Source of the DNA: Sphyrna mokarran
Taxonomy: Eukaryota
Direction: 5' to 3'
DNA: 64,000 nucleotides
Assembly: GCA_024679065.1 (NCBI GenBank)
Contig: JAGIQG010000009.1
Location: 96,720,001 to 96,784,000 of the forward strand
Of the stretch, positions 29,303-63,339 are shown piece after piece. Position 1 is the first letter of the stretch, and every line of letters begins with the position of its first letter. The translations under genes and the position numbers were made by a program. The notes beneath the pieces are model-generated. The model searched no databases. It was not told the DNA's origin and saw only the letters and a program-made list of their open reading frames with translations.

Positions 29303-29359
29303 CTTTCGAGAGAAAACCAGACAGAGCTGCAGATCAGTTATTTTTTTTTGTTTAAGTAT

Positions 29360-35325: not shown

Positions 35326-35667
35326 TTTTCACAGTGAGATGTGTTCCTGCACCATATTTCACACCCAGTTGCAACATCACCACTTCACAGTAATACACTC
35401 CGGAATCCTTCACTGTCACATCTTTGATGAGGATAGAGGCATCGCCGGCATTCCCAAAATCCTCACTGATCCTGTAGATCCTCCCTCTGTATGAAGCTGT
35501 CTCATTGGAAACTTCAGTTCCATTCCTTGTGTCTCTGTACCAGCTATAAGAGCCTATCGCCTTAGACACATTGGCTGTGTAGTCACAGGGAAGGAGCACT
35601 GTCTGCCCTTCCTCAGCCAGAGCAGTGGGCAGCTTTTGTACAACTGCAAACATCTCAGCTTCAATTC
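35326..35667 (-). CDS. ncr3: Gene A IgV exon (2nd)
   Basis: 342-bp phase 1-1 exon, AG/GT boundaries, canonical Cys-Trp-Cys, DSGVYYC and GAGT motifs. Confidence 0.92.
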
Positions 35668-36555
35668 CTGCAAACGAGAAAAGTTCAGGTTACTTGTTTT
35701 GTGGTTGTGACTTTGTCCAGTGAGTAAATATCTCAATGTTTCCTTCATTGTACAACTGGTTTCAGTGAACCACCTGGCAAACACAGCAAGGAATTGAGAA
35801 CAACTGGAAACTGGACAATTTTTTAAGAAATCTTTTCATGGGCAATGGGGCATCACTATCAATGCCTGCATTTGTTACCCATCCCTAATTGCCCTGGGAT
35901 GTTTTAGAGGGCAGTGAAGGGTTAGCCACATTAACATAACCAGGCTGTATAAGAGCGTCTTTCCCCAAAATCACAGATGGGCTTAGCTAACAATCCATCA
36001 TAGGTTCCCAGTCACCATTACTGAGACTAGCTTCATATTTCAGATTTTATTAAAAATTGAATCCGTACTGCAAAAGCTGTGATGATGGGAATAGAAATTG
36101 GTGTCATAGAGATTTACAGCATGGAAACAGATCCACCATCAACTCCCAACACATTTCATGATCACGGCTGATCATCAAATTCAACATCTGATTCCACCTT
36201 CACCCTATATCTCTTGATCCCTTCAGCTCTAAGAGTTATATCTATATTTCTTCTTGAAATTGGCCTCAACTACTTTTGAATTTCACAATCTGGATTTACT
36301 GCATCAAATTCATTCTGTGGTAGCCTCATGGAACATTAGGACGCAGCAAGAGGCCCTTTGGTCCAGCGTATCTGTGCTGACCATCAAGAGCCCATTGATT
36401 TTAATCCAATTTTCCTGCAGTTACTTCCTAGCCAAGAATGCTTTGACTTTACAACTGCTCATCTAAATGCTTCTGGCCAAGGTTCAGTCAGAGATAAGGC
36501 CACAGCTCTAAAAATTTGAATGTCCCATATCAATGCATGCAGTCGAATAGCATAC

Positions 36556-36897
36556 TTTTCACGGTGAGATGTGTTCCTGCACCATATTTCACACCCAGTT
36601 GCAACATCACCACTTCACAGTAATACACTCTGGAATCCTTCACTGTCACATCTTTGATGAGGATAGAGGCATCGCCGGCATTCCCAAAATCCTCACTGAT
36701 CCTGTAGATCCTCCCTCTGTATGAAGCTGTCTCATTGGAAACTTCAGTTCCATTCCTTGTGTCTCTGTACCAGCTATAAGAGCCTATCGCCTTAGAGACA
36801 TTGGCTGTGTAGTCACAGGGCAGGAGCACTGTCTGCCCTTCCTCAGCCAGAATAGTGGGCAGCTTTTGTACAACTGCAAACATCTCAGCTTCAATTC
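36556..36897 (-). CDS. ncr3: Gene A IgV exon (1st, N-terminal), NKp30-like VJ-type domain
   Basis: Acceptor cttttctcgtttgcAG, donor A|GTATGC; LPC..AIGSYSWYRD..GTEVSNET..YRGR..IKDV..DSRVYYC..YGAGT matches the NKp30 pattern (LPC/AIGSVTWFRD/GKEVRNGT/FRGR/IRDVR/YVC/GNGT). Confidence 0.92.
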
Positions 36898-37349
36898 CTG
36901 CAAACGAGAAAAGTTCAGGTTACTTGTTTTGTGGTTGTGACTTTGTCCAGTGAGTAAATATCTCCATGTTTCCTTAATTATACAATGGGATTCAGTGTGC
37001 CACCTGGCTAACACAGCAAGGAATTAAGAACAACTGGAAACTGGACAATGTTCCTTTTAATTTTTTTTCATGGGCAATGGGACAACACTGTCAATGCCTG
37101 CATTTGTTACCCATCCCTAATTGCCCTGGGACATTTTAGAGGGCTATGAAGGGTTAGCCACATTAAGATAACATGCAGACCAGGGTGTATAAGTGCGTAT
37201 TTCCCCAAAATCACATTAGTGAGACAGATGGGTTTATCCAACAATCCATCAAATGTTCCCAATCACCATTGCTGAGACTAGCTTTATATTTCAGATTTTA
37301 TTAATTGAATCCTAGTGCAGAAGCTGTCATGGTGGGAGTAGAAATTGGT

Positions 37350-37850
37350 GTCATAGAGGTTTACAGCATAGAAACCGGTCTTCTGGTCCAACTTGTCCAT
37401 GCTGCTAGTTTTTTACCACTAAGCTAGTCCTAATTGCCCACATTTGGTCCATATCCCTCTACACCCACCTTACCCATAACTGTCTAAAGCTTCTTAAAAG
37501 ACAAAATTGTACCACATCTACTACTACTTCTGGCAGCTTATTCCAGACACTCACTACCCTCTGAGTGCAAGAGTTGCCTCTCCAGACCCTTTTGGAATTC
37601 TTCCCTCTCACCTGAAGTCTATGCCCTCTAATTTTTAGACTCCCTGAGCTTTGGGGAAAGATGATGACTATCTCCCTTATCTATGCTCTCATTTTTTAAT
37701 AGACCTCTATAAGATCACCTCAGCTCCCGAGGCTCCAGGGAAAAAAAGAATCAGTCTATCCAGCCCTTCCTTATAATGAAACCATAAGTCCGGTAACATC
37801 CTAGTAAATCTCTTCTGTGTGCTTTCTAGTTTAATAATATCCTTTCTATG
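37350..37850 (-). mobile_element. CR1 3' fragment in gene A intron 1
   Basis: Similar to 19890-20380 and 70-430. Confidence 0.75.
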
Positions 37851-38847
37851 TGCTTAGAGCATTAACCTGCGCCACTGGATAATAAATCCATCAGCACTAT
37901 GATTATTTTCAGTGACTTTTTATTTGGTTGCAAAAAATAGACTTTATTTCTAAAATATCTGAAAGAGATCATAGAATCCTTATAGTGCAGAAGGAGGCCA
38001 TTCAGCCCATTGACTGTCCAACAGAGCATCTTGCCTAGGCTCACCCTTGTCTCATTCCCTTAACCTCACTAAACTACATATATTTGGAAACTAGGGGTAT
38101 GTCTAATCCATCTAACCTATACACCTTTTCACTGTGGCACAAATCTGGAGCACCTGAAAGAGACCCACAAGACATGGGGAGAACATACAAACTCCACACA
38201 GATAATCACTCAAGGTTGGAAGTGAACCCAGCCCCTGGCACTGTCAGCCTTACTAACCACTATGGCACTGACAAACTTTTCAAAATGGCATCACAGAGAG
38301 TGCAATAATATCGAAGTTCCCTACATAGAGTAAGTTGCACGCTGAGGTGCCTCAATGTAACCTAAAGAAACATTACAAGTATTTCAAAATGGTTATTACT
38401 AGTGGTGCACTTGTATTTATGTTTTCTATATTGATTAAGTTGCTATCTGAGGTGCTTCAATACAATTCTGATACATGTAATGTTCAATTCCAGTCATACA
38501 ATCCTAAGGGATCTGTACAATTCACCTGCCTTCAGTGCACTCTGACTGAAAAATCATAGATAGTCGCCATCCCTTTTTGCATCTATATGGTGGCAGCCCC
38601 AAAGCTTTGGTGCATCTCTGGGGATACTGTTCTGGGCATGGCAAAATGCGAGTCTGCAAGACTCAGTTGGGAATAGCTCTTTGTACTGGAAAACACGTTT
38701 TGGCCAGACTAAAGGGTTTCTTTCAATGAGTAGATAATCCTGGTCGATCCATCAACATCTCCTTCTTGACAAAATATCTCAAAATGATAACTGGAAGTAT
38801 TTAGCAGATCTACGTATAAGACTGGAATAAATGAAGATTGTACTCAC

Positions 38848-38890
38848 CAGAAAGAGGAATTAGTATGCACATGATGTGGATTGGATTCAT
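38848..38890 (-). CDS. ncr3: Gene A exon 1: leader peptide MNPIHIMCILIPLS(G) of NKp30/NCR3-like receptor
   Basis: ATG at 38890, 43-nt hydrophobic leader ending G|GTGAGT (phase 1); splices in frame to the GA-ATT-GAA-GCT-GAG-ATG start of the V exons; same 43-nt length as the leaders at 43181 and 63297. Confidence 0.85.
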
Positions 38891-41800
38891 GCCTGTTACA
38901 GTAATGAGATTTGAAAACCTGGTGAAATGAAACAGCATGGTCAATAGAAAAGGAATAACATTCTAGCCATGAAGAGGAAAACCATTCAAATGTGGCCTCT
39001 GCTTGAACATACATTAACAGAGAAACATGAGATCCACTGGTTGTGAAACCATGCCTAATGGACAGAACAGACGGAAGAGAATTTAAAGTCTATCTTGAAT
39101 TACCGTCAGTCCACAAACAATAATTTTGGTCTCGCTTGTTAATTGAGGAACTAATATGCGAAAACAAGGTTTCTAAAAGTAGGACAACGTTGAACCACTT
39201 ATCCATCTGCTGTGCATGTAAACGCACAAATGGGGGTGGATTTTCACCATCAACCGTTGCTTTGCGGGGAGATTAATTTTAACTTTGGGTGAGAATGTGA
39301 AATGGACTTTGTCAATGTGACCTTTTATAACCTCCACCTGCAGTGCTATATGTTTGCAATGTCAATCCGTACCTTAACCTGAACAGCAAATCTAACCAAA
39401 TCTAATCGAATTCTTTGGGCGATGAGAGGGTATCTATTGTTCCTTCTGGAATTGTCTGGCTAAAACTGAAGGACTGACGTCCCCTAAAGACAGGAATAAA
39501 CTCAACCGCCTTCTTCGACCCGGCGATTAAAACTGGACACCTTATTCTGGATAGAGAACCAGAGTTTACCCTACATTAAATTACAAACGAAATAATATGT
39601 TGTCGATTTCACTGGATAACAGAAGTTGTAATAGAATTAAGAACTGTTCTTACTGAAAGAGTGGTGTTCATTGCGGAATGTTTTTGCACACTTGCAGTTG
39701 GGTGCTGGCGGGCAGGGGTTGGAGGAGGTGTTATTTGTATGTTAAGGTATGAAGTCTGGTTACTTATCAGGGGAAGTGTTTCAAATGGCGTTGACTTTTC
39801 AATATGTAATTGTGACTTTTCAGAAAGTAACTCACACAGGCCTGTAGTTAAGAATGCTGGTGCGATACTTAAGACGGGATACGGCAAGAATTTGGCACTT
39901 TATCAGCGACAGATCAGTGTTCTTGCTCCTTAACTGAACGGTTCTGCGTGAGACTGGATGGAATTGGTGACGTGCTTGTCTGGGATCACTCCTGCAACGG
40001 AATGAATTGAACATTCCCAATATTCGCAAAGCCCGGTTTAGTTGCGAATCAAACCCGGGTGCCTGGCACTGTGAGACAATATTGTTAACTGCTGTGCCAC
40101 CGTACGACCTGGACCCAGCAACTGGAGTCGCACCAAGTCCAGTTGAGTCTGCAAAGTTCTCCATAGTAGCAGCTATCCAAATTTGAGAGAATTCTCCCAT
40201 GGATTAATGAAGCAAAGACCTAAGAGTCAGGCACAGTGAATAATTCGGAAAAGAAAATGTTCCAAGCTCTCAAACACAATTTCTGTTCATGTCCCAGAGA
40301 TAACCTCATGGTCTTACTCTGCCAGAACTGTGATACCTTGCCTGTTCCCATCAAGCAGATATCGATTAGTTGGCTCAATGTTCCCCGTCTTTCTGCTTTC
40401 GTTTTTCTTCAGGGATCTGCCCACCGTTTTATTTTCTCTTGAATTATTTTTTAAGCTTTAAAACACACTGATGCTCCAGGTGCGCAGCCGCAGGCTCCAG
40501 CAGCAACGCCACATTCATTTGCAAACTAAATTTATAAATGTTTCAGGGACGTGCAACACAGTGTGGCTTCAGTGACACCGACTCCGGCTATCTATCTTCG
40601 GGACATCCGATACGTGACACCTACCGCTAAAACCATCCTGCCAATTAAACAGGAAATCTACATGTCCTTGCTCACGAAGACGGGTTTTTTTTTGCAGTAG
40701 TTCGCTTTATTTTAGTTAACTATTACTTTCAGCCGTTAGCTGAAGGAATTTGCAAGCTGAGTAATTACCAGTTATTTCAACGTCTGAAGCTTGTGCATAG
40801 TCTACATCTTTTGCCCATGTCTCCATGTGTTTTCTCCCTGTGCTCCGGTTTCCTCTGAAGAGGTGCTGATTAGATACATTGACCCGAACAGGCGCCGGAA
40901 TGTGCCGATTCGGGGAATTACACACTAACTTCATTGCAGTGTAAGTAAGTAAGCCTTACTTGTGACTACTGAATATACTTTTTAACTTTTAAGACAACCA
41001 TTGCGGAGAGTAGCCTTTATTCACATTTTCATTAATCAATTTCACCAAAAATTCGTTGCGGTTGTAATAGAAACATTGGGTGATTAGTTCTGCTGCCTCA
41101 GAGCGCCAGGGACACATGTTCGATTCTCGGCTTGGGTCACTGTATGTACATTCTCCCCGTGTCTATGTGGGTTTCCGCTGGATTCTCCAGTTTTCTCCCA
41201 CCTCAGTCCGAAAGACATGCTGGTTAGATGAATTGGTCTTGCTAAATTTTCACTCAGTGTACATGAACGGATGCAGGAATGTGGCTACCAGGAGATTTTC
41301 ACAATACCTTGTAGTGTTAATGTAATCCTACTTGTGACACTAATAGATAAACTTAAACATCAAAACTAGGAGCAGGGGTAAGCCATTTGGCCTTCCTAGC
41401 CTCTTCCACAATTTTGTGCTAATATGGCCGATATTAACACCATATTGCTGCTCTCTTTCCCTACTCCTTGACGCCCTTTGAATTTAGAAATCTATCCATT
41501 CCCTTGTAAACTATCTTAAATGAATTGGGTTACACAGATATCTACGGAAGAGAATTTATGTTCACACTCTCTAAGGGAAGAAGTTTCTCTTCATCTCAAT
41601 CTGAAGTGGACCACCCCATATCCTAAGATTGTGGTCCTTGTCTCGATCCCACACCAAACAGAGAAACCGACCACTGCTACCAGTCTGCCCAGAACTGTCT
41701 GAATTTTATCTTTCTCAATCTATGTTATGCCCTTCTCCAGTAATTAGAGCATTGGCCTGGGCTTCTACACTACCAGACTTGTCACATCATCATTTGGCAG

Positions 41801-43180: not shown

Positions 43181-43223
43181 ATGTGGTCCAGCCTTGAGCT
43201 TTGTATTCTGATTCTTCTCTTGA
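43181..43223 (+). CDS. ncr3: Gene B exon 1: leader MWSSLELCILILLL(T)
   Basis: gctagcATG start, hydrophobic, 43 nt, donor A|GTAAGT, in frame with the V exon at 48572 (…LLLTASA|EKVTV signal cleavage). Confidence 0.88.
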
Positions 43224-43669
43224 GTAAGTACCTACCTTAATTCACAGACCAGGGTATGAGTGGCAGATTCCCTTCGCTCAGACAGTCAATGATAATTTGG
43301 CAGTCACCATTGCTGAGATTAGTTTTCAATTCCTGATTTGATTTGAATCCATGTGGCCACACATTAGCCTGCTGCTCTGGATTACTCGAATAATGGCACG
43401 ACCACTTCACCTCTGTCTCCCCAAATTAGTGTACTAATCTTGTGCAATGATAGACAGCCAGTTGATTTTCTCCAGAAAGTTAAGTACTATACTTTTTATT
43501 ATCAATATTGGTGATCTGTAAACATCCATTATCCATCCCTAATTGTCCTTCAGAAGGTGGCAGTGAGGTGCCTCCTTGAACTGTTACAGTCTGTGTGGTG
43601 TAACCAGGCCATACCAGATTAAATACTGGATTAAATGCCACGGCATGCGATTTGACAGAAACATAGCCT

Positions 43670-44480
43670 TTTGATTTGATTTATTATTGTCATTTGAAAA
43701 GTGACAATACAATGAAACGTATTGTTTCTTGTGCATTATACGGGCAAAACATACCGTTCATATGGAAGGGAATGAGAGAGTGCAGAATGTAGTGTTACAG
43801 TCATAGCTATCGTACAGAGAAAGAACAACTTAATGCAAGGTAGGTCCATTCAAAAGTCTAATGGTAGCAGGAAAGAAGCTGTTCTTGAGTTGGTTGGTAC
43901 ATGACCTCAAATTTTCTTTTCCATCTTCTTCCCAACAGAAGAAGGCGGAAGACAGAATGTCCACAGTGTGTGGAATCCTTAGTTATGCTGGCTGCTTTGC
44001 CGAGATAGCAGGAAGCGTAGACAGAGTCAGTGATGGGAAGCTGGTTTGTGTAATGGATTGGACTACATTTACAACATCTTGTAGATTCTTCTGATCTTGG
44101 AGAGAGCAGGAGTCATACCAATCTGTGAAATGCCAGAAAGAATAATTTCAATGGTGCATCTGTAAACGTTGGTGAGAGTCCTAGCTGACATTTCAAATTT
44201 CCTTATTCTTCTGAGAAATTTGAGGCATTGGTACCTTTCTTAGCGTTTGGTATAGTGTTGGCATGAGGGGAAAAGGACAGGTTGTTGAGATCTGGAGACC
44301 TAAAACCCTGATGTTCTGGATCATTTCTACTTCATCCACATTGATGTAGACAGGGGCATGTTCTCCATTACGCTTCCTGAAGTGGAGGACAATTTCCAAT
44401 TGTTAATATTTAAGGAGAGATTATTATTGTCACTCCAATTCACCAGATTCTCTATCTTATTACTGTGTTCTGTCAACAAC
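43670..44480 (-). mobile_element. Rex1/Babar-type LINE 3' fragment
   Basis: EIVLHFRKR..HAPVYIN.DEVEMIQNIRVLGLQI resembles Rex/Babar KELIVDFRK..LYING..VE.V..FKFLG; shorter copy at 1240-1600. Confidence 0.7.
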
Positions 44481-44655
44481 ACTCGTGATCATGTTAAGCT
44501 TATTTGATGCACTGAAGCACATTGTGCTGGATCCATGGAAATAATAATGCCTTGCTAATCTTTGGCAATTATGTAAATGGCAAGGTCGGGCCATTCATTT
44601 AACACACTGCTTTTTTGTTTGCTTTCCTCCATTTAAATGGAAATCAAAATACCGG

Positions 44656-45100
44656 GTGTTGCCTGGTATGGAGGGCAGGTCTTATGAAGAGAGGCTGAGG
44701 GATTTGAGGTTGTTTTCGTTAGAAAGAAGGCGACTAAGAGGAGACCTTATTGAAACATATAAGATGATTAGAGGTTTAGATAGGGTGGACAGTGATAGCC
44801 TTTTTCCTAGGATGGAGAAAGCTTTCACGAGGGGACATAGCTTTAAAATAAGGGGTGGTAGTTATAGGATGGATGTCAGAGATAGGTTCTTTACCCAGAG
44901 GGTGGTAAGTGTATGGAATGCCCTGCCTGCTGCAGTTGTAGATGCGCCACATTTGGTGGCGTTTAAGAGGTTAGTAGATAAGTTTATGGATGAAAAGGGA
45001 ATGGTTTAGGTTAGAGGGTCATTGCTTTTTGTTAATTGGTCTGCGCAACATTGAAAGCCGAAGGGCCTGTTCTGCGCTGTAATGTTCTATGTTCTATGTT
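44656..45100 (+). mobile_element. CR1 3' fragment, near-identical to 15838-16270
   Basis: ORF LPGMEGRSYEERLRDLRLFSLERRR; GTTCTAT tail. Confidence 0.9.
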
Positions 45101-45803
45101 GTACGGGGTACCATACGACTTTGCCTGGGCTGTTGAAACTTAAATTTATCCCTATGACAGCTAAAGTTGAGAGAAAACTTCATAATAGCTTAGTAAAAGT
45201 AGAATGAAATGGATGAATTATAGCTGTGGTACACTTAGTACAGTCCGTTAACTTTGTGACTGAACAGTTTAAGAATTATATTTTGGAGGCTTGCATTTTG
45301 GTTTCCCCCTGTTAAAAGCGTACACTTGACACCAACTTCATGAGAATCCATGGTTAACAGTGGTGCAGAGGATATCCATTGGAACTGTTTTTACCCCGGT
45401 GCTTTCTCCACATAATTCCAAAAGACACGTTAATTGTTAAACTTCAAATAGATTATCACTTGGATTGCACTCGATTTTCCTGCAGAAGGATTGTATGGTG
45501 TTTAGCTTCTTGTTGAATTCGTTATTCAATATTTAATGCAATTTGATATTCACCAAAATATATTTTGACTGTACAAAAGCAAACTACTGCAGATGCTGAA
45601 ATCCAAAACCAAAAGAGAAAATCTCAGCAGATCTGGCAGAATCGAATCCAGATCCCAACTTTGACAAAGAGTCATCTGGATTAGAAACGTCAGCTCCTTT
45701 CTCTCCTTACAGATGCTTCCAGACCCGCTGAGATTTTCCAGCACTTTTTCTTTTGGTCTTTTTTATATTTCGACTATAAGTGGGCAACACAGTGACACAA
45801 TGG

Positions 45804-47212
45804 CAAATGTTGTCCCTTTGTTCAAAAAGTGGAGTAGGGACCATCCTGGAAATTATAGACCGGTGAGCCTGACTTCTGTTGTGGGCAAAGTCTTGGAAAG
45901 AATTATAAGGGATAGGATTTATAAGCATCTAGAGAGAAATAAATTGATTAGGGATAGTCAGCACGGTTTTGTGAAGGGTAGGTCGTGCCTCACAAACCTT
46001 ATTGAGTTTTTTGAGGAGGTGACCAAAGAGGTAGATAAGGGTAAGGCAGTTGATGTAGTGTATATGGATTTTAGCAAAGTGTTTGATAAGGTTCCCCATG
46101 GTAGGCTACTGCAGAAAGTGCAGATGCATGGGATTGAAGGTGATTTAGCAGTTTGGATTGGGAATTGGCTAGCTGATAGAAGACAGAGGGTGGTGGTTGA
46201 TGGGAAATATTCAACCTGGAGTGCAGTTACAAGTGGTGTACCTCAAGGATCTGTTTTGGGGCCACTGCTGTTTGTCATTTTTATAAATGACCTAGATGAG
46301 GGTGTAGAGGGTTGGATTAGTAAATTTGCTGACGATACCAAAGTGGGGGGAGTTGTAGACAGCGAGGATAGATGTTACAGTTTGCAGAGGGACATAGATA
46401 GGTTGCAGAGCTGGGCCGTGAGGTGGCAAATGGAATTCAATACGGATAAGTGTGAGGTGATTCACTTTGGTAGGAATAACAGGCATATGAAATATAGGGC
46501 TAATGGAAGGACCCTTAATAGTGTTGTCGAGTAGAGGGATCTTGGGGTACAAGTACATAGCTCTTTGAAAGTTGGCACCCAGGTTGATAAAGTTGTTAAG
46601 AAGGCGTACGGTGTGTTAGCTTTTATTGGTAGAGGGATTGAATTTAGGAGCCGTGAGGTTATGTTACAACTGTACAAAACTCTGGTGCGCGCACTTGGAG
46701 TATTGCGTACAGTTCTGGTCGCCGCATTATAAGAAAGATGTGGAAGCATTGGAAAGGGTGCAGAGGAGGTTTACCAGGAGGTTTGCTGGTATGGTGGGAA
46801 GGCCTTATGAGGAAAGGCTGAGGGACCTGAGGTTACTTTCATTAGAGAGAAGAAGGTTACACGGTGACCTAATTGAGGCGTATAAGATGATCAAGGGATT
46901 GGATAGAGTGGATAGTGAGAGCCTTTTTCCTCGGATGGTGATGACCAACACGAGGGGACATAACTTTAAATTAAGAGGTGGTAGTTATAGGACGGATGTC
47001 AGAGGCAGGTTCTTTACACAGAGGGTGGTGAGGGCGTGGAATGCCCTGCCTGCAGCAGTTGTGGACTCGCCTACTTTGGGGGCATTCAAATGTTCGGTGG
47101 ATAGGCATATGGATGATATTGGAATAGTTTAGGTTAGAGGGTCCACTGGCTGGCGCAACATCGAGGGCCGAAGGGCCTGTACTGCGCTGTAATGTTCTAT
47201 GTTCTATGTTCT
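45804..47212 (+). mobile_element. CR1 (HER1-like) LINE, 5'-truncated, RT domain; inserted in an HE1 SINE
   Basis: NYRPVSLTS, QHGFVKGRSC, GVPQGSVLGP, FADDTK motifs; (GTTCTAT)n tail; TSD ACAATGG at 45797-45803 and 47213-47219; in-frame stop and frameshift. Confidence 0.95.
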
Positions 47213-47624
47213 ACAATGGTTAGCATTGCTGTCTCACAGTGCCAGAGACCTAGGTTCAATTCCAGGCTCGGGTCACTGTCTGTGTGAAACTTTCACGTTC
47301 TCCCTGTGTCTGCGTGGATTTTCCCTGGATGCTCTGGTTTCTTCCCATAGTCCAAAAGTAGGTTGGTTGGCCATGCTAAGTTGCCCCTTGAGTTAAGGGA
47401 GTTAGTAGTGTAAAACTGTGGGATTACAGGAATGGGACCTGGGTGGGATTATGGTTGGTACAGACTCGACGGGCCGAAAGGCCTCTTTCTGTCATATCTA
47501 TGATATGATTCCATGAAATCAGCTTAGTTGCTTGAATCCTCCAACCTCAGCAAAATAATCATGAATTTCCCTTTACTTCAAAAAGTAAAATTCTAAATGA
47601 AATTTCCTGTTCTGCTATTCTAAC

Positions 47625-48397
47625 CTGTTAGCAAATGAGAGGTTATCCACTTTGGTAGAAATAATAATAGGAGGGATTATTATTTAAAGCGTGAAAAACT
47701 GCAGCATGCTACAGTGCAGAGGGACCTGGGGGTCCTTGTGCACAACCACAAAAACCCAGTCTACAGGTGCAGCAGGTGATCAAGAAGGCAAATGGAATGT
47801 TGGCTTTTATTGCGAGGGGAATAGAATATAAAAGCAGGGAGATCTTGCTGTAATGGTACTAGTGAGGCCGCAACTGGAGTATTGTATGCAGTTTTGGCCC
47901 CTGTATTTGCGAAAGGATACATTGGCCTTGGAGGGAATACAGAGAAGGTTCACCAGGCTGAGGGAGTTAACTTATGAAGAGAGATTGAATAGAGAAGATT
48001 GAGGAGGGATCTTATAGAGACATATAAGATAATGAAGGGGTTAGGTAAGGTAGAGGTGGAGAGATTCTTCCTGCTTAGAAAGGATAGCAGAATTAGAGGG
48101 CACAGCCTCAAAATAAGGGAGGCCAGTTTAGAACTGAGTTGAGGAGGAACTTCTTCATTCAAAAAGTGGTGATTATCTGGAATTCTCTGCCCATTGAAGT
48201 GGTGGAGGCTACCTTGTTGAATATATTTAAGTCACGGGTAGATAGATTTCTGATAGTCAAGGGAATTGAGGGTTATGGGGAGAAAGCGGGAAAGTGGATC
48301 TGATTCACTTCAAATCAACCATGATCTTGTAGAATGGCGGGGCAGGCTCGAAGGGCTAGATGGCCTACTCCTGCTCCTGTTTCTTATGTTCTTATGT
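47625..48397 (+). mobile_element. CR1 3' fragment (degenerate)
   Basis: Homology to CR1 ORF2 C-terminus, GTTCTTAT tail; absent from the duplicate unit at ~50400. Confidence 0.85.
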
Positions 48398-48571
48398 AAT
48401 ACAGAAGTTATTTTAGTCGGCCAGTGTCTACAGAAGGGAAGAATGTAGACAGGCGCTCATGAGGATTGTGTCGTCTGGATTCCAATGTTTAATTTAGGAG
48501 CGGGTTTGCAAACACGTCTGAAGACAGCGTGAGATTCTGGCTTCATTGTCAAACATTTTACTCTCTTACAG

Positions 48572-48910
48572 CAGCGAGTGCTGAGAAAGTCACAGTTATA
48601 CAGAGCCCGGTGTCCCTTAATGTAACCGAGGGGGAGACAGCAATGCTGTACTGCACGCTCGAAGGATTACGTGGAGTCGGTGTCTACACGTGGCACAGGG
48701 ACAGTAAAAATGGAAGTGAGCTTTCTAACAGTACAGCAGAATATAGAGGCCGGGTCTTTGGACCAAATATAGAGGAATCGGTCGGAAAGAGGGGTGCTTC
48801 GGTTCAATTAATAAACGTGACATTGAGCGATGCGGCGACCTATTATTGCAAAGTGGAATTTATAATAATGGGTGAATATTATGGGCTAGGAACAACACTG
48901 ATTGTGACAG
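48572..48910 (+). CDS. ncr3: Gene B IgV exon 1, NKp30-like
   Basis: ctctcttacAG acceptor, G|GTAAGC donor, 339 nt; VIQSP..LYC..GVYTWHRD..GSELSNST.EYRGRV..DAATYYC..YGLGTTLIV. Confidence 0.92.
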
Positions 48911-50580
48911 GTAAGCATCTTAATCGCTACTATGTTAAGAAAGTAATGAGGTAGATTAGCATGTTGCCTGCTGCAATCTTCAGAACAGATAGAGCAAAGA
49001 CAGTGACACAGACTTCAATGTTGTGGGCAGACGTCGAAAGAACATCTGCCTTCTCAGAGCCCGGCAACATCTGTCTTTGTGATGGTTCAATTTGTTCAAA
49101 TATATCCACTGGCGCAGCACAGGAACAGGTGTCGGATTCGATCCTCAGGTCCTTCGAGTTTACAACAATAAAATCAAAGCTGAACTGTTACATGAAGTGC
49201 ATTAATCCCCTTCAATGCGCTCCACACGGGACAAGCAGCCACCTCGCTCCCGCCCCCCGCCAGCGCCGAAGCTATTAAACCCGCTAAGAACTGAATATAA
49301 TTCCCACCCTTCCCCCCACACTCCCATTTCGCCTGACCTCCATACACTTAAATTTATCCCTATGATAGCTAAACTTTAGACAGAGAAAACTTTACAATAT
49401 CTTAGCAAAAATAGAACAAATGGACGAATTACAGCTCTGGTACACTTTGTATAGTCCTTTAATTTTGTGACTGAACATTTTAAGAATTATATTTTGGAGG
49501 CTTGCATTTTGTTTTTTTTTCCCCTGTTAAAAACATGCACTTGACATCAACTTCATGAGAATCTATAGTTAACAGCGGTGCAGAGGATATCCGTTTGAAC
49601 GGCTTTTGCCCCCGTGCTTTCTGCACTTAATTCCAAAAGACACGTTAATTGCTACAACTTCAAATAGATTATCATTTGGAGTGCAATCGATTTTACTGCA
49701 GAAGGTGTTTAACGCGTCTTGTTGAATTCCTTGTACAATATATAATGCAATTTGATAATCACCAAAATATATTTTGACTGTACAGAAGCAAATTACTGCG
49801 GGTGCTGGAATCCAAAACCAAAAGAGAAAATCTCAGCAGATCTGGCAGAATCGAACCCAGATCCCAGCTTTGACAAAGAGTCATCTGGATTAGAAACGTC
49901 AGCTCTTTTCTTTCCTTAGGAGATGCTGCCAGACCTGCTGAGATTTCCCAGCATTTTTTCTTTGGTTTCTTTATATTTCGACTATAAGTGGGCAGCACAG
50001 TGGCACAGTGGTTAGCACTGCTGTCTTACAGTGCCAGGGACCCGGGTTCAATTCCAGGCTCGGCTCACCGTCTGTGTGAAGCTTTCACGTCCTCCCCGTG
50101 ACTGCGTGGGTTTCCCCCGGATGCTCCGGCTTCCTCCCATAGTCTAAAGAAATGCGGGTTTAGGTTGGTTAGCCTGAGTTAGCAAGGTCAAACCATGTGG
50201 TCACGGGAACTGTGGGTGAAATTGTGGTCGGTGCAGAATGGATGGGCCGAATGACCTCCTTTTGTCATATCAATGATATGATTCTTTGAAATCGGTTTAG
50301 TTGCTTGAATCCTCCAAACCTCAGCAAAATAATTACGAATTTCCCTTCTCTATTTCAAAAAGTAAAATTCTAAATGAAATTTCCTATTCTGCTCTTCTAA
50401 TGGAGAAGTTAGCGTTTCATTTTTGTTGGCCAATGTCTGCAAAAGGGAAGAGTTTAGGCAGGCGCTCCTGAGGATTGTATCATTGGGATTCCAATGGTAA
50501 GTTTCGGAGCGGGTTTGTACACACCTCGGAACGCAGCGTGGGTTCCCGGCTTCATTGTGAAACATTTTACTGTCTTACAG

Positions 50581-50919
50581 CAGCGAGTGCTCAGAAGGTC
50601 ACAGTTGTTCAAAGCCCGGTGTCCCTTAATGTAACGGAAGGGGAGACAGCGGTGCTATACTGCACGCTCGAAGGATTACGTGGAGTCGGTGTCTACATGT
50701 GGTACAGGAACAGTAAAAATGGAAGTGAGCTTTCTAACAGTACACCAGAATACAGAGGCCGGGTCATTGGACCAAATAGGGAAAAATCGGGCGGAAGGAG
50801 GAATGCCTCGATTCAGTTAACCAACGTAAAATTCAGCGATGCGGCGACTTATTGTTGCAAAGTGGGACTGGGAACAGCAGGTGAATATTATGGGCTAGGA
50901 ACAACACTGATTGTGACAG
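50581..50919 (+). CDS. ncr3: Gene B IgV exon 2, NKp30-like
   Basis: tgtcttacAG acceptor, G|GTAAGC donor, 339 nt; paralog of the exon at 48572; YYC motif changed to YCC. Confidence 0.9.
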
Positions 50920-52099
50920 GTAAGCATCTTAATCGCTGTTATGTTAAGAAAATAATTAGCCAAAATGGTGAAGTATGTTAACATATTGCCTGCTGCAATC
51001 TTCAGAATAGACAAGAGCAAAGATAGTGATACAGACTTCAAGGTTAGGGGCATCGAAGGAACATCTACCTTCTCAGAGCCCGGTAATATCTATCTTTGTA
51101 AGGTTCCATTCGAGCAAATATATTCACTGGCGCAGCACAAGAACAGATGTAGTATTGACCCTGAGGTCCTTCAAGTTTATAACAACAAGATCAAAGCTGA
51201 ACTGTCATATGAAGTGCACTAATCCTGTTCAATGCGCTCCATATGGGACAAGCAATCCCTCAGCACCGAATCTATTAAACCCGCTAAGAACTGTATACAA
51301 TTCCCTCACCTTCTCCACTCCCCACCAATCCCATTTGGCCTGATCTCCATACACTATATCCCTATTCTACTCAATCTCACCTCTCATCCCAGGAAGCATT
51401 CTTGGGAAGTAAGTAATTCCAATTTCGATTCGGTCTCAGTTTACAGACCACTGCTTTCTGAGCAGTGGGCGACCTAATATTTCCCAGTTGGGTTAGTTAT
51501 GCCTGCTATGAAAATAAAGGGTACCCCACAAATAGTCCGATCAGAATGTTTGAGGAATACTTGTTAGATATTCACAGGGTTTGTGTTGCAGAGTTTGTCT
51601 TCATCACCAATCTGAAATCCACAGTGTTTATCACCTATCCTAAAGAGGATTTCCATGTTCTGATGAGAATGGCATCTTGTAATGATATGCTACTTACTTA
51701 AATTAATTAACTTTGATATTTATACAGCAATGTGGCGTCAGTCTTCGAGTGTCGGCGTGAAGTCACTCGAAGCAACAAATCCGATTAGACATTTGGCTGA
51801 TCTAATTAACTCTCCGGTGGCAATAGAAATTCACCCATTTGAGAAGATTCCTAACGGAATCATTCAGTTAATTTTATAATGTGGTCGCCTTCGTTATTGT
51901 AAGCAAACGCAGCAATAATTTTTTGCACAGTTTAGTCACTCACGCGTTAGTTAATCAGCTAAACAATTTTGCTGATTTGATTGAGACAAACATTCCTTAG
52001 GGATGAAATTCCGCCTCTGGTGGCTTCTGATACTGGAATCCATCTACAGAGGTAGATGGAAAGCCTCTGGCTAGCAAGACACCTTTGGGGCAGCGCCAA

Positions 52100-52315
52100 G
52101 GAGCTGAAGTGGCAAATGGAGTTTAATGTGGAAAAGTGTGAGGTAATGCACTTTGGCAGGAACAATAAATGTGTAGAGTATAGGGCTAATGGTAGGCTCT
52201 TAATAGTGTGAGGAACAGAAGGATCTTGGTGTATGTGTCAATAGATCCCTGAAAGTAGGCAGTCAAGTGGATAAAGTTGTTAAGAAGGCTATGGAGTCTT
52301 GCTTTTTTGGTAGGG
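52100..52315 (+). mobile_element. CR1 fragment near-identical to 15470-15690, running into a G/T-only tract
   Basis: gtggcaaatggagtttaatgtggaaaagtgtgagg… matches 15478 onward. Confidence 0.8.
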
Positions 52316-52819
52316 GGTTGTTTGGGTTGTTGTGTTTGTGGGTTGGGTTTGTGTGGTTTGGTTTGGTGTGGGGTTGGGGGGTGGGGTTTGGTGTTGTGGT
52401 TGGGGGGTTTGGGGGTGGGTTTGGTTGTTTTGTGGGGGGGTGGGTTTGTTGTTGTGTCTCCTTCTGCTCCTAAGTTTTATGTGCCTCTACCAAGCTAATG
52501 GTGTAGGAATGGGAACTTTGCAAAAGGCAAAACAGAAATCCAAGGATTTTCGCTGCCCGCTTAATCCGAGTTAAGAGATGTGTCAGTTTAAGTCTATTTG
52601 ATTAATTATAAATACCATCCCCGCCCCCATCGCAGTATTCTATTGTCTGCTCCAGTACCCTCGCCCCCAGGACCAGTTCAATCAACCCTATTCGGGGCAT
52701 CATTTAGTTTCTCTGTTTAATTCTTGCCTGGTTAAATTAGTATGTAATCTACATAGTTAATGTGGGAGTGAAGATGACGTGGAAGAAGCAAAAAATAAAT
52801 GACGTTTGCTTTCTTATAG

Positions 52820-52951
52820 GAGCAGAGAGCCGGATTCAAAAACCGGATAATTCTATGGATGCATCGACGGCCCTGTTTATAACAAAGACGTTGTTTGTAT
52901 TGCTCCTGTTCTCGACAACTATTGTCATATATTACCGAAAAAAAAACAAAG
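52820..52951 (+). CDS. ncr3: Gene B stalk+TM exon (GAESRIQKPDNSMDASTALFITKTLFVLLLFSTTIVIYYRKKNK) with intramembrane Lys
   Basis: ttgctttcttatAG acceptor, G|GTGCAT donor, 132 nt phase 1-1; hydrophobic stretch with Lys, ending YY plus a basic stop-transfer sequence like NKp30 (…TVYYQGK). Confidence 0.85.
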
Positions 52952-54134
52952 GTGCATGTTGTTTCTATGTGTAATCTCAATCCGTTCACAGTACTAACGG
53001 ATCGGCCGCGTTTTTATTTAAAGAACTATGCATCAATTTCATTTTGGAACGGTGTACAATTCCAAGGTGCAAACTCAAGAATTGCAAATTATTTAATTAA
53101 GGCAATTTGTTTCCGTCCACGAGCGTGGCTGGTTAGAAATATTGACTAAATTTCACAGTCCCAATTCCGCAATGCATTCAGATAACGAAGTGAACCCAAT
53201 GAAAATGCAAGCTTATTACTCTTCAGGCGACGTAATACATAGAATCTCCGCAATTAACTTCTAATAACTAAACGAAATGCTCAATTTCATCTTTCCATTA
53301 TAAGATTGACCGTTAATTAATTACACTGAAAATATAATGCTGTCTAAATTTGTAATTTCGCTTTCATCAGTGGAATTTATCAATTATCATAAAAAGAGTT
53401 CATTTACATCCTTGTCCTGTTGTTCTAATGAGCAGGATCAGTTTTCAGACGTGAAAGATTTAAGTTCAATGTTAATTTATTGTCACAAGTAGGCTTACCT
53501 GAACTGAAGTTACTGTGAACACCCCCTAGTCCCCACATTCCGATGCCTGCTTGGGAAGTGAAGAAGAATTTAACATAGTCGATGCATCTAACTAGCATGT
53601 CTTACCTACTGTGGGAGGAAAGCAAAGCATCTGGAGGAAACCGTGCAGAAATGGGGAGAATAGACAGAGTCACAGTATGTGGCCCAAGCCAGGAATCGAA
53701 CCTGGATTCCTGGTTCTGTGAGGCAACAGTGCTAACCACTCTTTTCACAGAATCCTACAGTACAAAAGGAGGCCATTCGACTCATCGAGTTTGCATCGAC
53801 CACAAGACCACCCGAGCCCTATTCCCATAACCTATACATTTACCCCAGCTAATCCCGCTAACACTAAAGGGCAATGTAGCATGGTCAATCCATCTAACCC
53901 GCACATCTTTGGACGGTGTGGGGAAACCGGAGCACCCGGAGGAAAGTCACGCAGATATGGGGAGAATGTGCAAACTCCACACAGACAGTGCCCGCAATCC
54001 AGGAATCCAGGTCCCTGGCGCTGTGAGGCAGCAGTGCTAACCACTGTGCTACCGTACTCCGCTAAGGCGTTCTGAAAAGGGGATTTTTTTTTCATTCATT
54101 TAACTTGCATAATTCCTTTAGCTCTACATATCAG

Positions 54135-54208
54135 GTATCAGAAGGCCCGAAGGTCCATGGTTGGAGTCAGTGTCACTGAAGACGAATTGCGTATTCATAA
54201 AGTGTTGA
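54135..54208 (+). CDS. Gene B candidate terminal cytoplasmic exon (GIRRPEGPWLESVSLKTNCVFIKC*; or EGPKVHGWSQCH* from the acceptor at 54142)
   Basis: Acceptor AG at 54133-54134 or 54140-54141, open in phase 1, AATAAA at ~54310. Confidence 0.45.
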
Positions 54209-54524
54209 TAAATGCTGTTTTCGTTTGCAAATGAATGTGAATTTGCTGCTGGAACTTGCGACTGTGTATTGCCGCTCTTGTTTTAAAGTTTTGAAAATAA
54301 TTTAATGAAAATAAAATACCTGGCACATGCCTGGAAGCTTAAAGGAAAACTAAACCAGAAAGGTTCAGAACATTTTGCCATCTCATCGCCATTCACGCTG
54401 TAAAACAGGCAAGGTAACTTTTCAGTGTAATACGAGACGAAAATTAACATTCTAATCAAACAGAGATTGTGCCCTAACAGGCAATCAATGCACTGGGTCC
54501 AGTTTATACCTCAATGGTAAATTG

Positions 54525-55225
54525 AGAATATAAGAACAAAAGAACTAGGAGCAGGAATCGGCCATTCTGGCCCCTTGAGCCTGCTCTGCTATTCAACAAG
54601 ATCATGGCTGATCTTTTCTTGGGCTCAGCCCCACTTACCGACCCACTCATCATAACTCTTAATTCCTTTACTGTTCAAAAATTTATCTATCCTTGCCTTA
54701 AAAATATTGAATGAGGCAGCCTCAACCGCTTCACTGGGTAGGAAATTCCACAGGTTCATAACCGTTGGTGTGAAGAAGTTCCTCAGTCCTAAATCTGCTT
54801 CCCCTTATTTTGAGGCTATGCCCCCTAGTTCTAGTTTCACCCGCCAATGGAAGCAATTTCCCTGCTTCTATCTTACCTATTCCCTTCATAATTTTATATG
54901 TTTCTATGAGATCTGCCTTATTCTTCTGAATTGCAATGACTAAAACCACAGTCTACTCAGTCTCTCCCCATAAGTCAACTCTCTCATTTCTGGAATCAAC
55001 CTAGTGAATCACTTCTACACCCACTCCAGTGCCAGTATATCTTTTCTCAAGTGAGGAGACCAAAACTGTACACAGTATTCCAGGTTTGGTCTCACCAACA
55101 CCTTATATAGCTGCAATATAATCCCGCTGTTTTTAAATTCCATCCTTCTAGCAATGAAGGACAAAATTAAGTTTGCTTTCTTAATTATCTGCTGCACCTG
55201 CAAATCAACTCCTTGAGATTCCTTG
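54525..55225 (-). mobile_element. CR1 3' fragment
   Basis: LYKVLVRPNLEYCVQFWSPHL..DLIETYKIMKG ORFs. Confidence 0.85.
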
Positions 55226-55289
55226 AGAATGAACCTCATATTGCCTTATCTGAAGATGCCTGTTAACAAACCGATACCTTTAAGATATG

Positions 55290-55640
55290 TGTGCCATCAA
55301 CACCTGCTTTCACCTCGTCAACATCCCCTGGTGTCACCCCTGCCTCTGCTTCCTCATTCATTCTTTCTGTGTCTGCACTGTTGTCTATACAAACACAGGA
55401 TTAGCTGATCTCTTGAAATCTACCCACCACGCTGCTGCCAGTGTTTTAACTCGCAGGCAAATGCCGCTGTACTATCGTCTCTGCGCTCGCTTCATCGGCT
55501 CGCATTCAAGCGATACGTTGGTTTTAAGGTTCTTATCCTTGTTTTCAATTGCCTTAATGAGCTTGCCTTTTCCCATACCATTGAACAACACCAGTCGAGA
55601 TATTTGTTCACCTCTCATTCTGGCCTATTGCGAATTCCCA
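55290..55640 (+). mobile_element. Old L2-like LINE 3' remnant
   Basis: AAASVLTR…LHRL…GFKVLILVF-like degenerate L2 C-terminus. Confidence 0.4.
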
Positions 55641-57025
55641 GTTAGAATTGCTTCACAATTAGTGTTTCTTCGGTTCTGACTCTTTAATTGCCTCAGATCC
55701 AAGCTGCGGCATTCCCATTTTATATCTCTCCATCTATTCACTGGGCTTGCTGTCAATCTGTTACGAGGGGAGTTCAGCCTGTGAGTAAGGATGGCATTCT
55801 TCAGTTATAAAGCTCATTAGTGAGACTATGACCGGAATTCTCCCTTCCCACCAGCCACTGGAATTTTAGCGGGCGGGCTGAGGAGAATGTGAAATGTTAT
55901 TGACCATCGGACGGGAATTTTCAGCCTTTTGACCAGAGCCACTGGAGAATTCTGCCCTACAGTGATCAGAGTAGAACTCCTTGTTTAAGAAAGGATGTAA
56001 ATGCAATGTAGGCAGTTCAGAGGGGTTTTAACCAGGGTGACAGTTGGAATGAATGAATTTTCTTTTATGAGAAAAGTTTGGACGCACGGGGCTTGTTTTC
56101 ACTGAAGTTTAGAAGAGTGAGAGATGATTTCATTGAATGTTATAGAGTCACAGAGGTTTACAACATGGAAACCGGCCCTTAAGCCCAACTTGTCCATGCC
56201 GCGCTTTCTTTTTTAAAACTCCTAAACTAATCCCAATCGCCCGCAATTGGCCCATAGCCCTTTGTACCCATCATACCTATGTAACTGTTTAAATGCTACA
56301 AAATTGTATCCGCCTCTACTACTTTCTTTGGCAACTTGTTCCAGGCACTCACCACCCTCTATGTGAAAAAGTTACCCAACTGGACACTTTTGTATCTCTC
56401 CCCTCTCATCTTAAACCAAGCCCTCTAGTTTTAGTTATACTATCCTGAAATGTGACTAAATGGATGTGGAAAAGTTGTTTCCTCTTGTGGGTGAGTCAGA
56501 AGAAAGGTAGACTGTTTAAAAATGAAGAGTTTCACAGATGAAGCAGAGATGAGGGTTTTTTTTTTATTCTCTAAGGGAGTTATGTGACTATGGAAACTCT
56601 TTGCCTCACAAGAAAGTGGAGACAGGGTTTCTCAATAACGTGAAGGCAGCGGTGGAAGGAGTTGTGTTAGTCAAGAGAATCAAAGATTATCTGGGGGTCG
56701 TTAGAGAATGTGAAACTCAATAAAAATAGAAGAGCCATGATCTTATTGAATGGGAGAGCAAGCTGGAGGAGCCGAGTGGCCTGCTTAGACTCCTATTTCG
56801 AAGGTTTGCATGTCTTCAACACAATCCTTACAATTTTCCCCTTCCAGCAAGATTTCAGTTACCTGACCTAACATCTCCTTCAGTGTTCAATGCATCGTTT
56901 GCTCTGTAACATTTCCCTGAAGGTTTTTCTTGAAGGTTTTCCCTAAAGATGTAATAACATCAAAGATGCAACATTGTTTTTATTAGAAGGATACATTGCA
57001 GAAAACTTCCGTTTTGTTTCCTCAG

Positions 57026-57069
57026 GCGGCTGTCTTGAAGCTAACTTACTTTATTGCAATAAAACTTGA
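57026..57069 (+). CDS. Gene B alternative candidate terminal exon (GGCLEANLLYCNKT*)
   Basis: Strong acceptor ttccgttttgtttcctcAG|G, open in phase 1 to TGA. Confidence 0.35.
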
Positions 57070-57499
57070 GAAGAATGAGAATGAAGAAGTTAGCCATCAT
57101 ATTTAAACAAAAACTCCATCATTTTCACACGAGAAAGGGTTCAAAAATGTTGCCATAGTTTGTGAACTTTAAAATATTCGAGATACTTCTTCAAGGCACA
57201 GACTTGCTTCATACTGGGGATAGAGAGGGTAAAATATTTGCACAATTCTTTTTTCCTTCTCCCCAAACTCAATTTTCACTTCCATCTGTTCGGGAATACA
57301 GTCGGTGAGACAGATCCTCAAAATGAAACCTGAAAATAATAGCAACTTTAAAGAAAAACTTTCCCCATGGCAGAGGGCATGAGTACAACGTGAGGATAAA
57401 TGGTTTAGAGAAGACCTGAGGGAGAAAATGTGTCATCCAGATGCGGTGGGAATATGGGAATGTGGTGCGTGAGAGGATGGTGAAGGCAGGTACTCCCGC

Positions 57500-58325
57500 C
57501 AGTGGCGGATTAACTACCACCGGGACCCCTAGGCTGAGTTTTAGTAAGGCCTCCTGACCTTGCCCCCGCCTCACCCTTCGTTGAAGAGAATAAAGTGACG
57601 TTAAATGACGTTAGATAACTTATACCGTTGTACTATGTATAATGCATACATATATAATATCATAAAGTTGTATGAATCAATTACAGCCCTTTTATTCATT
57701 TATTTTTCATTTTCTTTACATTTGTACTTTAAAAAGCTTCCGTGTTTTTTTTTCGCTTACAAAAGTATCGATAACAGCAGGTAGATCAACAGATCGAAGC
57801 ATGTCTGATTCAATGTCCATGAGTGCCAGAGGACCAAGTTTCTCATCACTCATTATTGAACCAAATAGATTTTGATCCTCTTCAGTGTTGAAAATGAACT
57901 TTCACCTGAACAGTTAGTGATCATTAAGGACAGATAAACTCTAAAGCAAAAGTACGTACTTGGATGCACCTCTTGCAGTCAATCTCTTGGCAGAGCTTGA
58001 TACATCCCAGTGATAGCGACATCATCATCGGATTATCCTTGAAGGTACTTCTGAAAGTGGACGAGCATGAGAAACTCTTTGCTGCATTTATTTTGAATTT
58101 ATTTGCATGTATATAAGTCGGGAGGGGAGACGGATGAAGCTCCTCTATTTATAGATATTTGTTATATTAATTCACCCATGGGTATAGTTATGAAAATTTA
58201 TTCACTCTTAAAAGGGTTAAACCATTTTTTTTTACTCTCCGCCTCTCCACACTACCCCCCCCCCCCCCCTCCCTTCCGGGCCCCTAGGTTTAAACCTACT
58301 CAACCTAATGGTTAATCTGCTACTA
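57500..58325 (-). mobile_element. Internally deleted hAT (Tip100-like) DNA transposon, 826 bp
   Basis: TIRs CAGTGGCGGATTAAC / GTTAATCTGCTACTA, 8-bp TSD actcccgc/actcttgc; minus-strand remnant LSLMITNCSGESSFSTLKRIK…MSDEKLGPLALMDIESDMLRSVDL of the hAT C-terminal dimerization domain; inserted in a CR1 3' fragment. Confidence 0.85.
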
Positions 58326-62885: not shown

Positions 62886-62909
62886 CCCCCTGTCATTACT
62901 TTTATTACG

Positions 62910-63296: not shown

Positions 63297-63339
63297 ATGG
63301 TTTCTAGTTTCGAGTTCTGCATCCTGGTCCTTGGAATGG
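63297..63339 (+). CDS. Gene C exon 1: leader MVSSFEFCILVLGM(G) of a further NCR3-like paralog extending beyond the window
   Basis: gctagcATG context, 43 nt, donor G|GTAAGT, similar to the gene B leader; upstream sequence homologous to the gene B promoter. Confidence 0.78.

Follow-up and report, generated by a model that had tools for sequence, protein, structure and literature searches.

Human NKp30 (NCR3) is a single-copy, one-domain activating receptor. Kinlein et al. 2021 treat shark NCR3 genes and may already cover ITIM-bearing, Lys-bearing or multi-V subtypes. Siglec-14/5, in which gene conversion is known, SIRP-beta/alpha and skate MDIR are paired-receptor systems comparable to the locus described below.

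In PMC1440944, KIR2DS/KIR2DL and NKG2C/NKG2A appear as adjoining activating and inhibitory genes with similar ectodomains. The inhibitory counterparts of KIR and NKG2C are older there, Lys having been gained independently. In paired systems of this kind, an inhibitory ancestor gains a transmembrane (TM) Lys and loses its ITIM, and the ectodomain is homogenised by conversion.

Gene B of Sphyrna mokarran lies in a window of 64,000 nucleotides (96,720,001-96,784,000, forward strand, contig JAGIQG010000009.1, assembly GCA_024679065.1), and coordinates below, unless marked otherwise, are window positions on the + strand. Like human NKp30 (PDB 3NOI, 3PV6), it has a VJ-type Ig exon without rearrangement, MHC linkage, a basic TM residue and a tail in which no signalling motif was found. 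On the other hand, human NKp30 has one V and a TM Arg, whereas gene B has two V exons, a TM Lys and an adjoining, ITIM-bearing near-twin, gene C. As the V number and the TM residue vary across shark members, gene B is a variant rather than a human-type orthologue. From its sequence, gene B is an intact member of the NCR3/NKp30 family; it carries two IgV exons and a TM Lys, has no ITIM exon and is probably the activating partner of the predicted-inhibitory gene C. The informative comparison is with the adjoining gene C, which the original prediction overlooked, rather than with gene A, the other NKp30-like gene that it considered.

Exon structure and continuity of gene B

The leader exon (43181-43223; 14 codons plus one base, phase 1, donor GTAAGT) is homologous to the leader region of gene C. 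It is followed by two open 339-bp IgV exons with AG/GT boundaries, V1 (48572-48910) and V2 (50581-50919), and by a 132-bp stalk and TM exon (52820-52951, donor GTGCAT) with the Lys codon AAG at 52885-52887. Every junction is phase 1. The original prediction, a leader at 43181 ahead of two V exons and a TM exon that encodes the peptide given for it, with Lys rather than Arg, is borne out with all parts intact. In both V exons, a G-x-G-T J motif and a V-set match lie within the one exon, as in the non-rearranging VJ type. No leader-like exon ahead of V2 was found in the 1.67-kb V1-V2 intron.

Over their 339 nt, V1 and V2 show 43 differences, and their proteins have 89 of 112 residues in common; they diverge most around the D-E strands and the FG loop, while their acceptors are near-identical. 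V2, modelled at pLDDT 87.6 and closest in fold to NKp30, keeps 7 of the 7 family-invariant residues, has a divergent FG loop, and through a Tyr-to-Cys change carries an extra, unpaired Cys immediately ahead of the second canonical one.

Ahead of the TM exon lies a real and abnormal low-complexity G/T tract (52318-52458; no A and one C in 141 nt), which has no counterpart outside microsatellites in the DNA examined. It sits in a gene B-specific LINE insertion (52085-52484), as 52084 and 52485 map to the adjacent gene C positions 68767 and 68766 (extended coordinates). An assembly mis-join is unlikely, as these flanks are contiguous in the paralog and the B and C introns show collinearity on either side of the tract. 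The same collinearity assigns the TM exon to gene B and not, as had been raised, to another gene across the tract.

Downstream, last-intron blocks homologous to gene C (52959-53435) stop before its tail exons. DNA alignment of 52952-63290 revealed no homologue of those tail exons, with scores lower than those of shuffles, nor did masked BLAST, tblastn or a motif scan of that interval, and tblastn with the tails of five relatives for a gene B last exon returned noise only. An acceptor scan alone gave two candidate short last exons (56848-57070; acceptors before 56848 and 57026, AATAAA at 57058), neither of which codes for an ITIM. If the TM donor were read through, the protein would gain seven residues before a stop at 52972-52974. 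Gene B may be truncated or silent.

Gene C and relatives of the same subtype

Genes B and C are in tandem. Gene C begins within the window (63297-64000, leader 63297-63339) and continues beyond it, in extended coordinates, with a V exon at 66253-66591, an uncharged TM exon at 70381-70518, and tail exons at 72133-72173, 75969-76082 (LQYSTL) and about 77510-77550 (TVYNTV). It is of the same subtype as gene B, with one V (86% amino-acid identity to B-V1), Ala at the Lys column and an ITIM tail. The traits of paired receptors found here are adjoining paralogs and similar ectodomains, with a basic TM and no ITIM found in B, and an uncharged TM with an ITIM in C.

In the tree, B-V1, B-V2 and C-V cluster (support 93/86) within a subtype clade (100/97) that holds four other sharks. 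Records of white shark (XP_041069022.1), horn shark (P0005) and catshark (XP_038673433.1) fall in the V clade of gene B with 63-71% identity to V1, and their TM exons match that of gene B at 21/43, 23/43 and 13/38 aligned residues, respectively. Each combines a single V with Ala in the Lys column and an ITIM-type tail, making them gene C-like rather than B-like. Among the five other TMs of the subtype, gene C included, four have Ala in the Lys column, and VQY/LQY ITIM-type tails are present on all four.

The bamboo shark record XP_043533794.1 (P0001) belongs to the subtype of gene B and resembles it in having two V domains, a basic residue in the TM and a short, ITIM-less tail, although that residue is Arg, one column C-terminal to the Lys of gene B. 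Its two V domains are mutual sisters (100/100), and a common origin with the gene B pair is rejected (AU p=0.003). The two-V form is likely convergent with that of gene B, while concerted evolution could also give this tree. Since only five subtype relatives were found in databases, the inhibitory-to-activating direction rests on three outgroup species, and the charged TM of the bamboo shark record leaves room for a charged-TM ancestor.

Duplication and probable gene conversion of the V exons

By self-BLAST, the tandem duplication consists of unit 1 (45138-49348), which holds V1 and its intron flanks and is broken up by LINE fragments, and unit 2 (49346-51355), which holds V2 and its intron flanks. 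Intron segments 45138-45803 and 47213-47623 pair with 49346-50011 (87%) and 50005-50400 (79%), respectively, and the V-containing segment 48410-49348 pairs with 50419-51355 (82%). Trees agree with the earlier claim that the V exons of genes A and B were duplicated separately; one origin of their multi-V state is ruled out (AU p=7.8e-5).

Identity between genes B and C is 58% in the leader, 65% in the TM exon and 66-70% in four intron blocks, as against 93.6% in the middle of V1, which points to gene conversion. The inferred tract common to B-V1 and the gene C V exon spans 48459-48870 by mosaic test (0/1000 permutations) and simulation. B-V1 differs from C-V at 30 nt and from its own duplicate V2 at 43 nt, a pattern absent in simulations without conversion (0/3000 at each of three omega values). 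Derived residues are common to B-V1 and C-V where V2 keeps the outgroup state, most clearly V77 and I80 (5 of 5 outgroup domains); 7 of the 15 V2-only residue differences are changes in V2 itself. Monophyly of B-V1 and B-V2 is marginally rejected at the protein level (AU p=0.049). These patterns point to homogenisation of the B and C ectodomains by gene conversion, in either direction.

Weighing family, adaptor and function

The original prediction of an NKp30-like gene holds, as both V domains are closest to NKp30 in sequence and fold and the gene is linked to the MHC: each of the 53 matches to MHC class I is on the contig of gene B, the nearest 0.92 Mb away (a class II beta search, with 0 matches, was uninformative). 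The best PDB sequence match of V1 is human NKp30 (E 3.8e-10). SIRP-beta is a Lys/DAP12 paired receptor, and gene B could be a SIRP-beta-like receptor, as the SIRP-beta-1-like names of 2 of its 4 closest records have it and as SIRP alpha/beta sequence scores trail NKp30 by only 2-3 bits. However, the fold match is better for NKp30 (TM-score 0.80, rmsd 2.6) than for SIRP (0.68-0.74, rmsd 4.3-4.7), so that, with these models, NKp30 is the closest solved relative by a margin small in sequence and clearer in fold. The SIRP family has a V followed by two C1 domains and lies outside the MHC, whereas gene B is MHC-linked and no C1 exon was seen between V2 and TM; its neighbours, moreover, cluster with a record from nurse shark that bears the name NCR3. 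A SIRP-beta-like identity is thus very improbable. A closer contender keeps the NCR3 assignment and departs from the paired reading in the adaptor alone: gene B would couple, like human NKp30, to FcRgamma/CD3zeta, with Lys as a tolerated stand-in for Arg at equal depth. The Lys is the ninth of a 25-residue stretch, with 8 uncharged residues before and 16 after it. That following run lies within the 14-16 counted in six family TMs with Arg, and two other TMs with Lys have 15; the Lys thus lies at the same distance from the cytoplasmic end as the family Arg, which weakens the DAP12 step. A TM Lys is also present in a further NCR3-like gene of this genome and in a sawshark record. Asp-bearing TM exons of CD3zeta and FcRgamma are present in this genome. 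PF07213/PF02189 searches for DAP10/DAP12, a method insensitive on split exons, gave 0 matches at normal thresholds, and five weak matches at E up to 10 are not adaptor exons. A predicted complex of the gene B TM exon and a dimer of FcRgamma TMs scored 0.14 (mark 0.34), which speaks neither for nor against such pairing. On the other hand, the run before the basic residue, counted by eye, is 8, 6 and 6 in Lys TMs versus 2-7 (median 3) in Arg TMs, and the ninth position is like position 9 in KIR; in a crude 23-residue window the Lys is also at 9, but the family Arg spreads over 3-10, so this measure does not discriminate. Arg-to-Lys replacement substantially reduced FcalphaRI assembly with Fcgamma, and type I DAP12 partners use Lys, according to PMC1440944. 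DAP12 is slightly favoured as the predicted adaptor, and FcRgamma/CD3zeta coupling is a less probable but serious candidate.

Gene B could otherwise be a decaying copy, with V duplications across the cluster arising near-neutrally by unequal crossing over and the loss of its tail as a mark of pseudogenisation. The failure of the searches to give a last exon and the Tyr-to-Cys change in V2 fit this, as do altered conserved residues in some recent gene A V copies, and conversion from gene C could keep V1 intact without selection. However, frameshifting indels number 15 in 1193 aligned intron bases and 0 in V1 or V2 (P ~0.014 under a neutral model), V2 would stay open by chance in ~4%, and dN/dS between V1 and V2 is 0.113/0.234, with dS inflated by gene conversion. 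With the invariant residues of V2, the leader, the TM exon and the splice sites also retained, decay is rather unlikely, and there is weak support for both V exons being maintained. The shared phase 1 of the junctions would allow one-V splice forms, and the V exons might mostly be used one at a time, as L-V1-TM or L-V2-TM, so that a single gene would yield two one-domain receptors of differing specificity. The near-identical acceptors, the divergence around the D-E strands and FG loop and a TM-skipping isoform annotated in a white shark relative (P0004) are in line with such use. But sequence inspection shows nothing in the 1.67-kb intron that would impose mutual exclusion, all three V domains are retained in three isoform models from horn shark, and the bamboo shark model joins its two. 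Alternative use is unlikely, if somewhat less so than decay.

A putative activating-inhibitory pair

In the preferred reading of genes B and C as a pair, an ancestor with one V, an Ala TM and an ITIM tail would have duplicated long ago. Gene B would then have acquired its Lys and shed the ITIM exons, with the duplication of its V exon coming later, and gene conversion since then would keep the membrane-distal V1 close to the V of gene C. Gene B would bind the same ligand as gene C or a related one and signal via an ITAM adaptor held by the Lys, while gene C would recruit phosphatases. V2 would serve as a spacer or as a second, divergent binding site. KIR and NKG2 pairs belong to other protein families, and their opposite signalling and adaptor binding are proven, whereas those of the B/C pair are predicted.

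A broader scenario is tentative. The ITIM-bearing shark NKp30 subtype may have twice independently given rise to an activating twin with two V exons, a charged TM and no ITIM, once with Lys in gene B and once with Arg, a residue further on, in bamboo shark. In gene B this would go with a switch to DAP12 and with conversion matching the outer V to the inhibitory partner, amounting to KIR-like evolution inside the shark MHC, on the one NK receptor common to sharks and mammals. If shark NKp30 relatives do form activating-inhibitory pairs homogenised by conversion, KIR paired-receptor logic would already be at work on this MHC-linked family in the oldest lineage that has adaptive immunity, and the inhibitory state may be old in the family. 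The pair would offer a direct test: the same ligand, opposite signals and one residue (Ala or Lys) setting adaptor use.

V-exon number in other cartilaginous fish

Comparison of V-exon number across sharks, as originally proposed, turned up multi-V models among database relatives in five other cartilaginous fish, so that multiple V exons are not rare. Multi-V forms and TM lysines, taken alone, are common in the cartilaginous-fish NKp30 family and less notable. Three V exons near 107.6 Mb were dropped as a single multi-V gene, as separate TM exons lie between them. In gene A, some recent V copies are changed at otherwise conserved residues.

Structure and integrity of gene B

Gene B is the NKp30-like gene on the + strand comprising a leader exon (43181-43223), IgV exons V1 (48572-48910) and V2 (50581-50919), and a TM exon (52820-52951). 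As originally predicted, the leader precedes two V exons and a TM exon with a Lys; the splice sites are canonical and in phase 1, and the four exons together keep one frame open over 284 codons. Between V1 and V2 there are 43 differences in 339 nt, and their duplication took in intron flanks that are 79-87% identical by BLAST, with no second leader within the duplicated unit.

The TM exon could have belonged to another gene, because a suspect G/T tract of 141 nt (0 A, 1 C) lies near it. This tract, probably poor sequence, sits inside a LINE fragment, which up to the tract shares 96% identity with other LINE copies. The insertion flanks, 52084 and 52485, map to adjoining intron bases (68767 and 68766, in coordinates extended beyond the window) of gene C, the next NKp30-like gene, and the TM exon therefore belongs to gene B.

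Aligned introns carry 15 frameshifting indels per 1193 bases, so about 4 would be expected in the V1/V2 exon pair, where none is found (P about 0.014); V2 alone would remain open by chance with P about 0.04. Judged from sequence, V1 and V2 both look maintained, and the indel pattern shows use of both exons without showing selection for two domains per chain. Gene B is a real, intact gene of a known family. Separately, an inverted homologous block of 320 bp (66%) occurs 3′ of its TM exon (54099-54416) and upstream of gene A (40334-40649), with no further copies in the DNA examined.

Family assignment

V1 and V2 both match Pfam V-set, and their best PDB sequence match is human NKp30 (E 3.8e-10 and 9.8e-10), with SIRP scores close behind. 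For the AlphaFold model of V2 (pLDDT 87.6), the best predicted fold match is also NKp30 (TM 0.80, rmsd 2.6), SIRP being poorer (rmsd 4.3-4.7). Every one of the genome's 53 MHC class I matches falls on the contig of the window, between 85.8 and 95.8 Mb, and the nearest is 0.92 Mb away from gene B. On the same contig, a search with V1 picks up 21 related V exons. In the literature, NCR3 is an MHC-linked, non-rearranging VJ gene with eight nurse shark accessions (PMC12227049), and human NKp30 has a single IgV and a TM Arg, with CD3zeta and FcRgamma as partners (PMC6514059, PMC5371597; see also PMC10751288, PMC12272517, PMC3972465, PMC10450919). The names assigned automatically to shark and ray NCR3-family models P0001, P0002, P0009, P0010, and P0014 (SIRP-beta-like, pIgR-like, turtle-like) are misleading and hide the size of the family in databases.

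Multiple V exons and the TM Lys recur

Gene A, the other multi-V NKp30-like gene (28304-38890, - strand), has a leader (38890-38848), four 342-bp V exons (36897-36556, 35667-35326, 33748-33407, and 31798-31457), and an Arg TM exon (28390-28304). Its V exons make up a separate clade (100/99) whose sister is a one-V record, and those of gene B fall in another subtype clade (100/97). A single origin of the two multi-V states is rejected (AU p=7.8e-5), upholding the proposal that the duplications were independent. Changes at otherwise conserved residues appear in the three newest V copies of gene A; its V1 has Gly-to-Arg in the D-x-x-x-Y-Y-C motif, and its V3 has Gly-to-Arg in the J motif and also Arg-to-Gly.

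The multi-V state is recurrent in the family, not special. Database gene models filed under unrelated names have 5 and 2 V exons in devil ray, 3 in horn shark, and 2 each in catshark, sawshark, and bamboo shark, and 15-21 kb upstream of the window there is an NCR3-like gene with four V exons (C1548:96698881-96706430). Its TM carries a central Glu that P0010 and P0034, two horn shark records, also have; such an acidic residue is unusual in a TM of the NCR3 family. Nor is the TM Lys unique to gene B, since it also occurs in a sawshark relative (P0158) and, conserved with it, in an NCR3-like gene of this genome at 107.597 Mb (C1548:107597329-107598909, - strand). Both headline features are real in gene B but common in the family, and the better finding is a likely activating/inhibitory pair of genes B and C with probable gene conversion.

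Gene C and the predicted activating/inhibitory contrast

Gene C starts at 63297 and extends beyond the window. It has one V exon (C-V), 86% identical in amino acids to V1 of gene B, an uncharged TM, a tail exon carrying LQYSTL, which fits the ITIM consensus, and a further exon carrying TVYNTV. Intron homology of gene B to gene C stops at 53435, before the tail exons, and no homologue of these exons is found in 52952-63290. White shark, horn shark, and catshark subtype records resemble gene C, with one V, Ala at the Lys column of gene B, and VQY-type motifs. Because four of the five other subtype TMs combine Ala with an ITIM tail, gene B is by parsimony the putatively derived form. The fifth relative, from bamboo shark, joins two V domains to a short tail and has Arg one column off the Lys; this form is probably a parallel invention, as its V pair groups apart from that of gene B (AU p=0.003). 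Homolog searches found no subtype relatives beyond these five.

A literature search found no published account of paired or converted shark NCR3 genes. Kinlein et al. 2021 reportedly described eight divergent MHC-linked shark NCR3 subtypes and may already include forms with an ITIM or with several V exons, so the novelty of the pair is provisional. A decayed copy of the ITIM-type tail exon lies some 10 kb 3′ of gene C (86271-86400, extended coordinates), with the motif Tyr lost, a stop, and a frameshift.

Probable gene conversion between V1 and C-V

Genes B and C are 58% identical in the leader, 65% in the TM, and 66-70% in four intron blocks, and to judge from this divergence they are old paralogs; V1 and V2 introns are 87-90% identical. 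V1 nevertheless differs from C-V at only 30 nt (dS 0.14), versus 43 nt from V2 (dS 0.23). V1 is a mosaic: it is 93.6% identical to C-V over a 173-nt middle part, and informative sites shift from agreement with C-V to agreement with V2 near 48870. The mosaic score was matched in 0 of 1000 permutations, and when evolution without conversion was simulated on the intron tree, the order with V1 closer to C-V arose in 0 of 3000 runs for each of three omega values. Two points count against conversion: 7 of the 15 residues differing in V2 only are V2's own changes, and the protein test of V1+V2 monophyly is marginal (p=0.049). The remaining 8 lean to derived states common to V1 and C-V, about six of them clearly.

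Adaptor choice and proposed mechanism

According to PMC1440944, type I receptors that partner DAP12 use a TM Lys, and exchanging Arg for Lys substantially reduced FcalphaRI-Fcgamma assembly. The TM of gene B gives a mixed picture on adaptor type. Its Lys, position nine of 25, is followed by 16 uncharged residues, within the 14-16 of six Arg-bearing family TMs; by eye, 8 uncharged residues precede it, versus 2-7 in the Arg TMs. TM exons of CD3zeta (C335:17364945-17365031) and FcRgamma (C446:11045007-11045090) are present in this genome and retain the conserved Cys and Asp. In our judgement DAP12 is somewhat the likelier adaptor, and FcRgamma/CD3zeta is a plausible second choice. For an old Lys-type adaptor link, the 107.597 Mb gene is a better candidate than gene B.

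The sequence shows the anatomy and family of gene B, its contrast with gene C, and the V1 mosaic. Beyond this, we propose that gene B would be expressed with both V domains, join an ITAM adaptor via its TM Lys, and activate; gene C would inhibit, and V1 and C-V would recognise the same or a related ligand. The inhibitory counterparts of KIR and NKG2C are older, according to PMC1440944, and by analogy one may speculate that gene B could counter a pathogen ligand exploiting gene C.

On the same contig, two V genes near 96.26-96.29 Mb (96245001-96315000) are matched by close paralogs in inverted orientation at 96.84-96.87 Mb (96844826-96873577), the groupings being supported at 100/98 and 100/97. 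Further activating/inhibitory pairs may exist, because the TM of one gene at 96.29 Mb contains Arg and that of the 96.26 Mb gene is uncharged.
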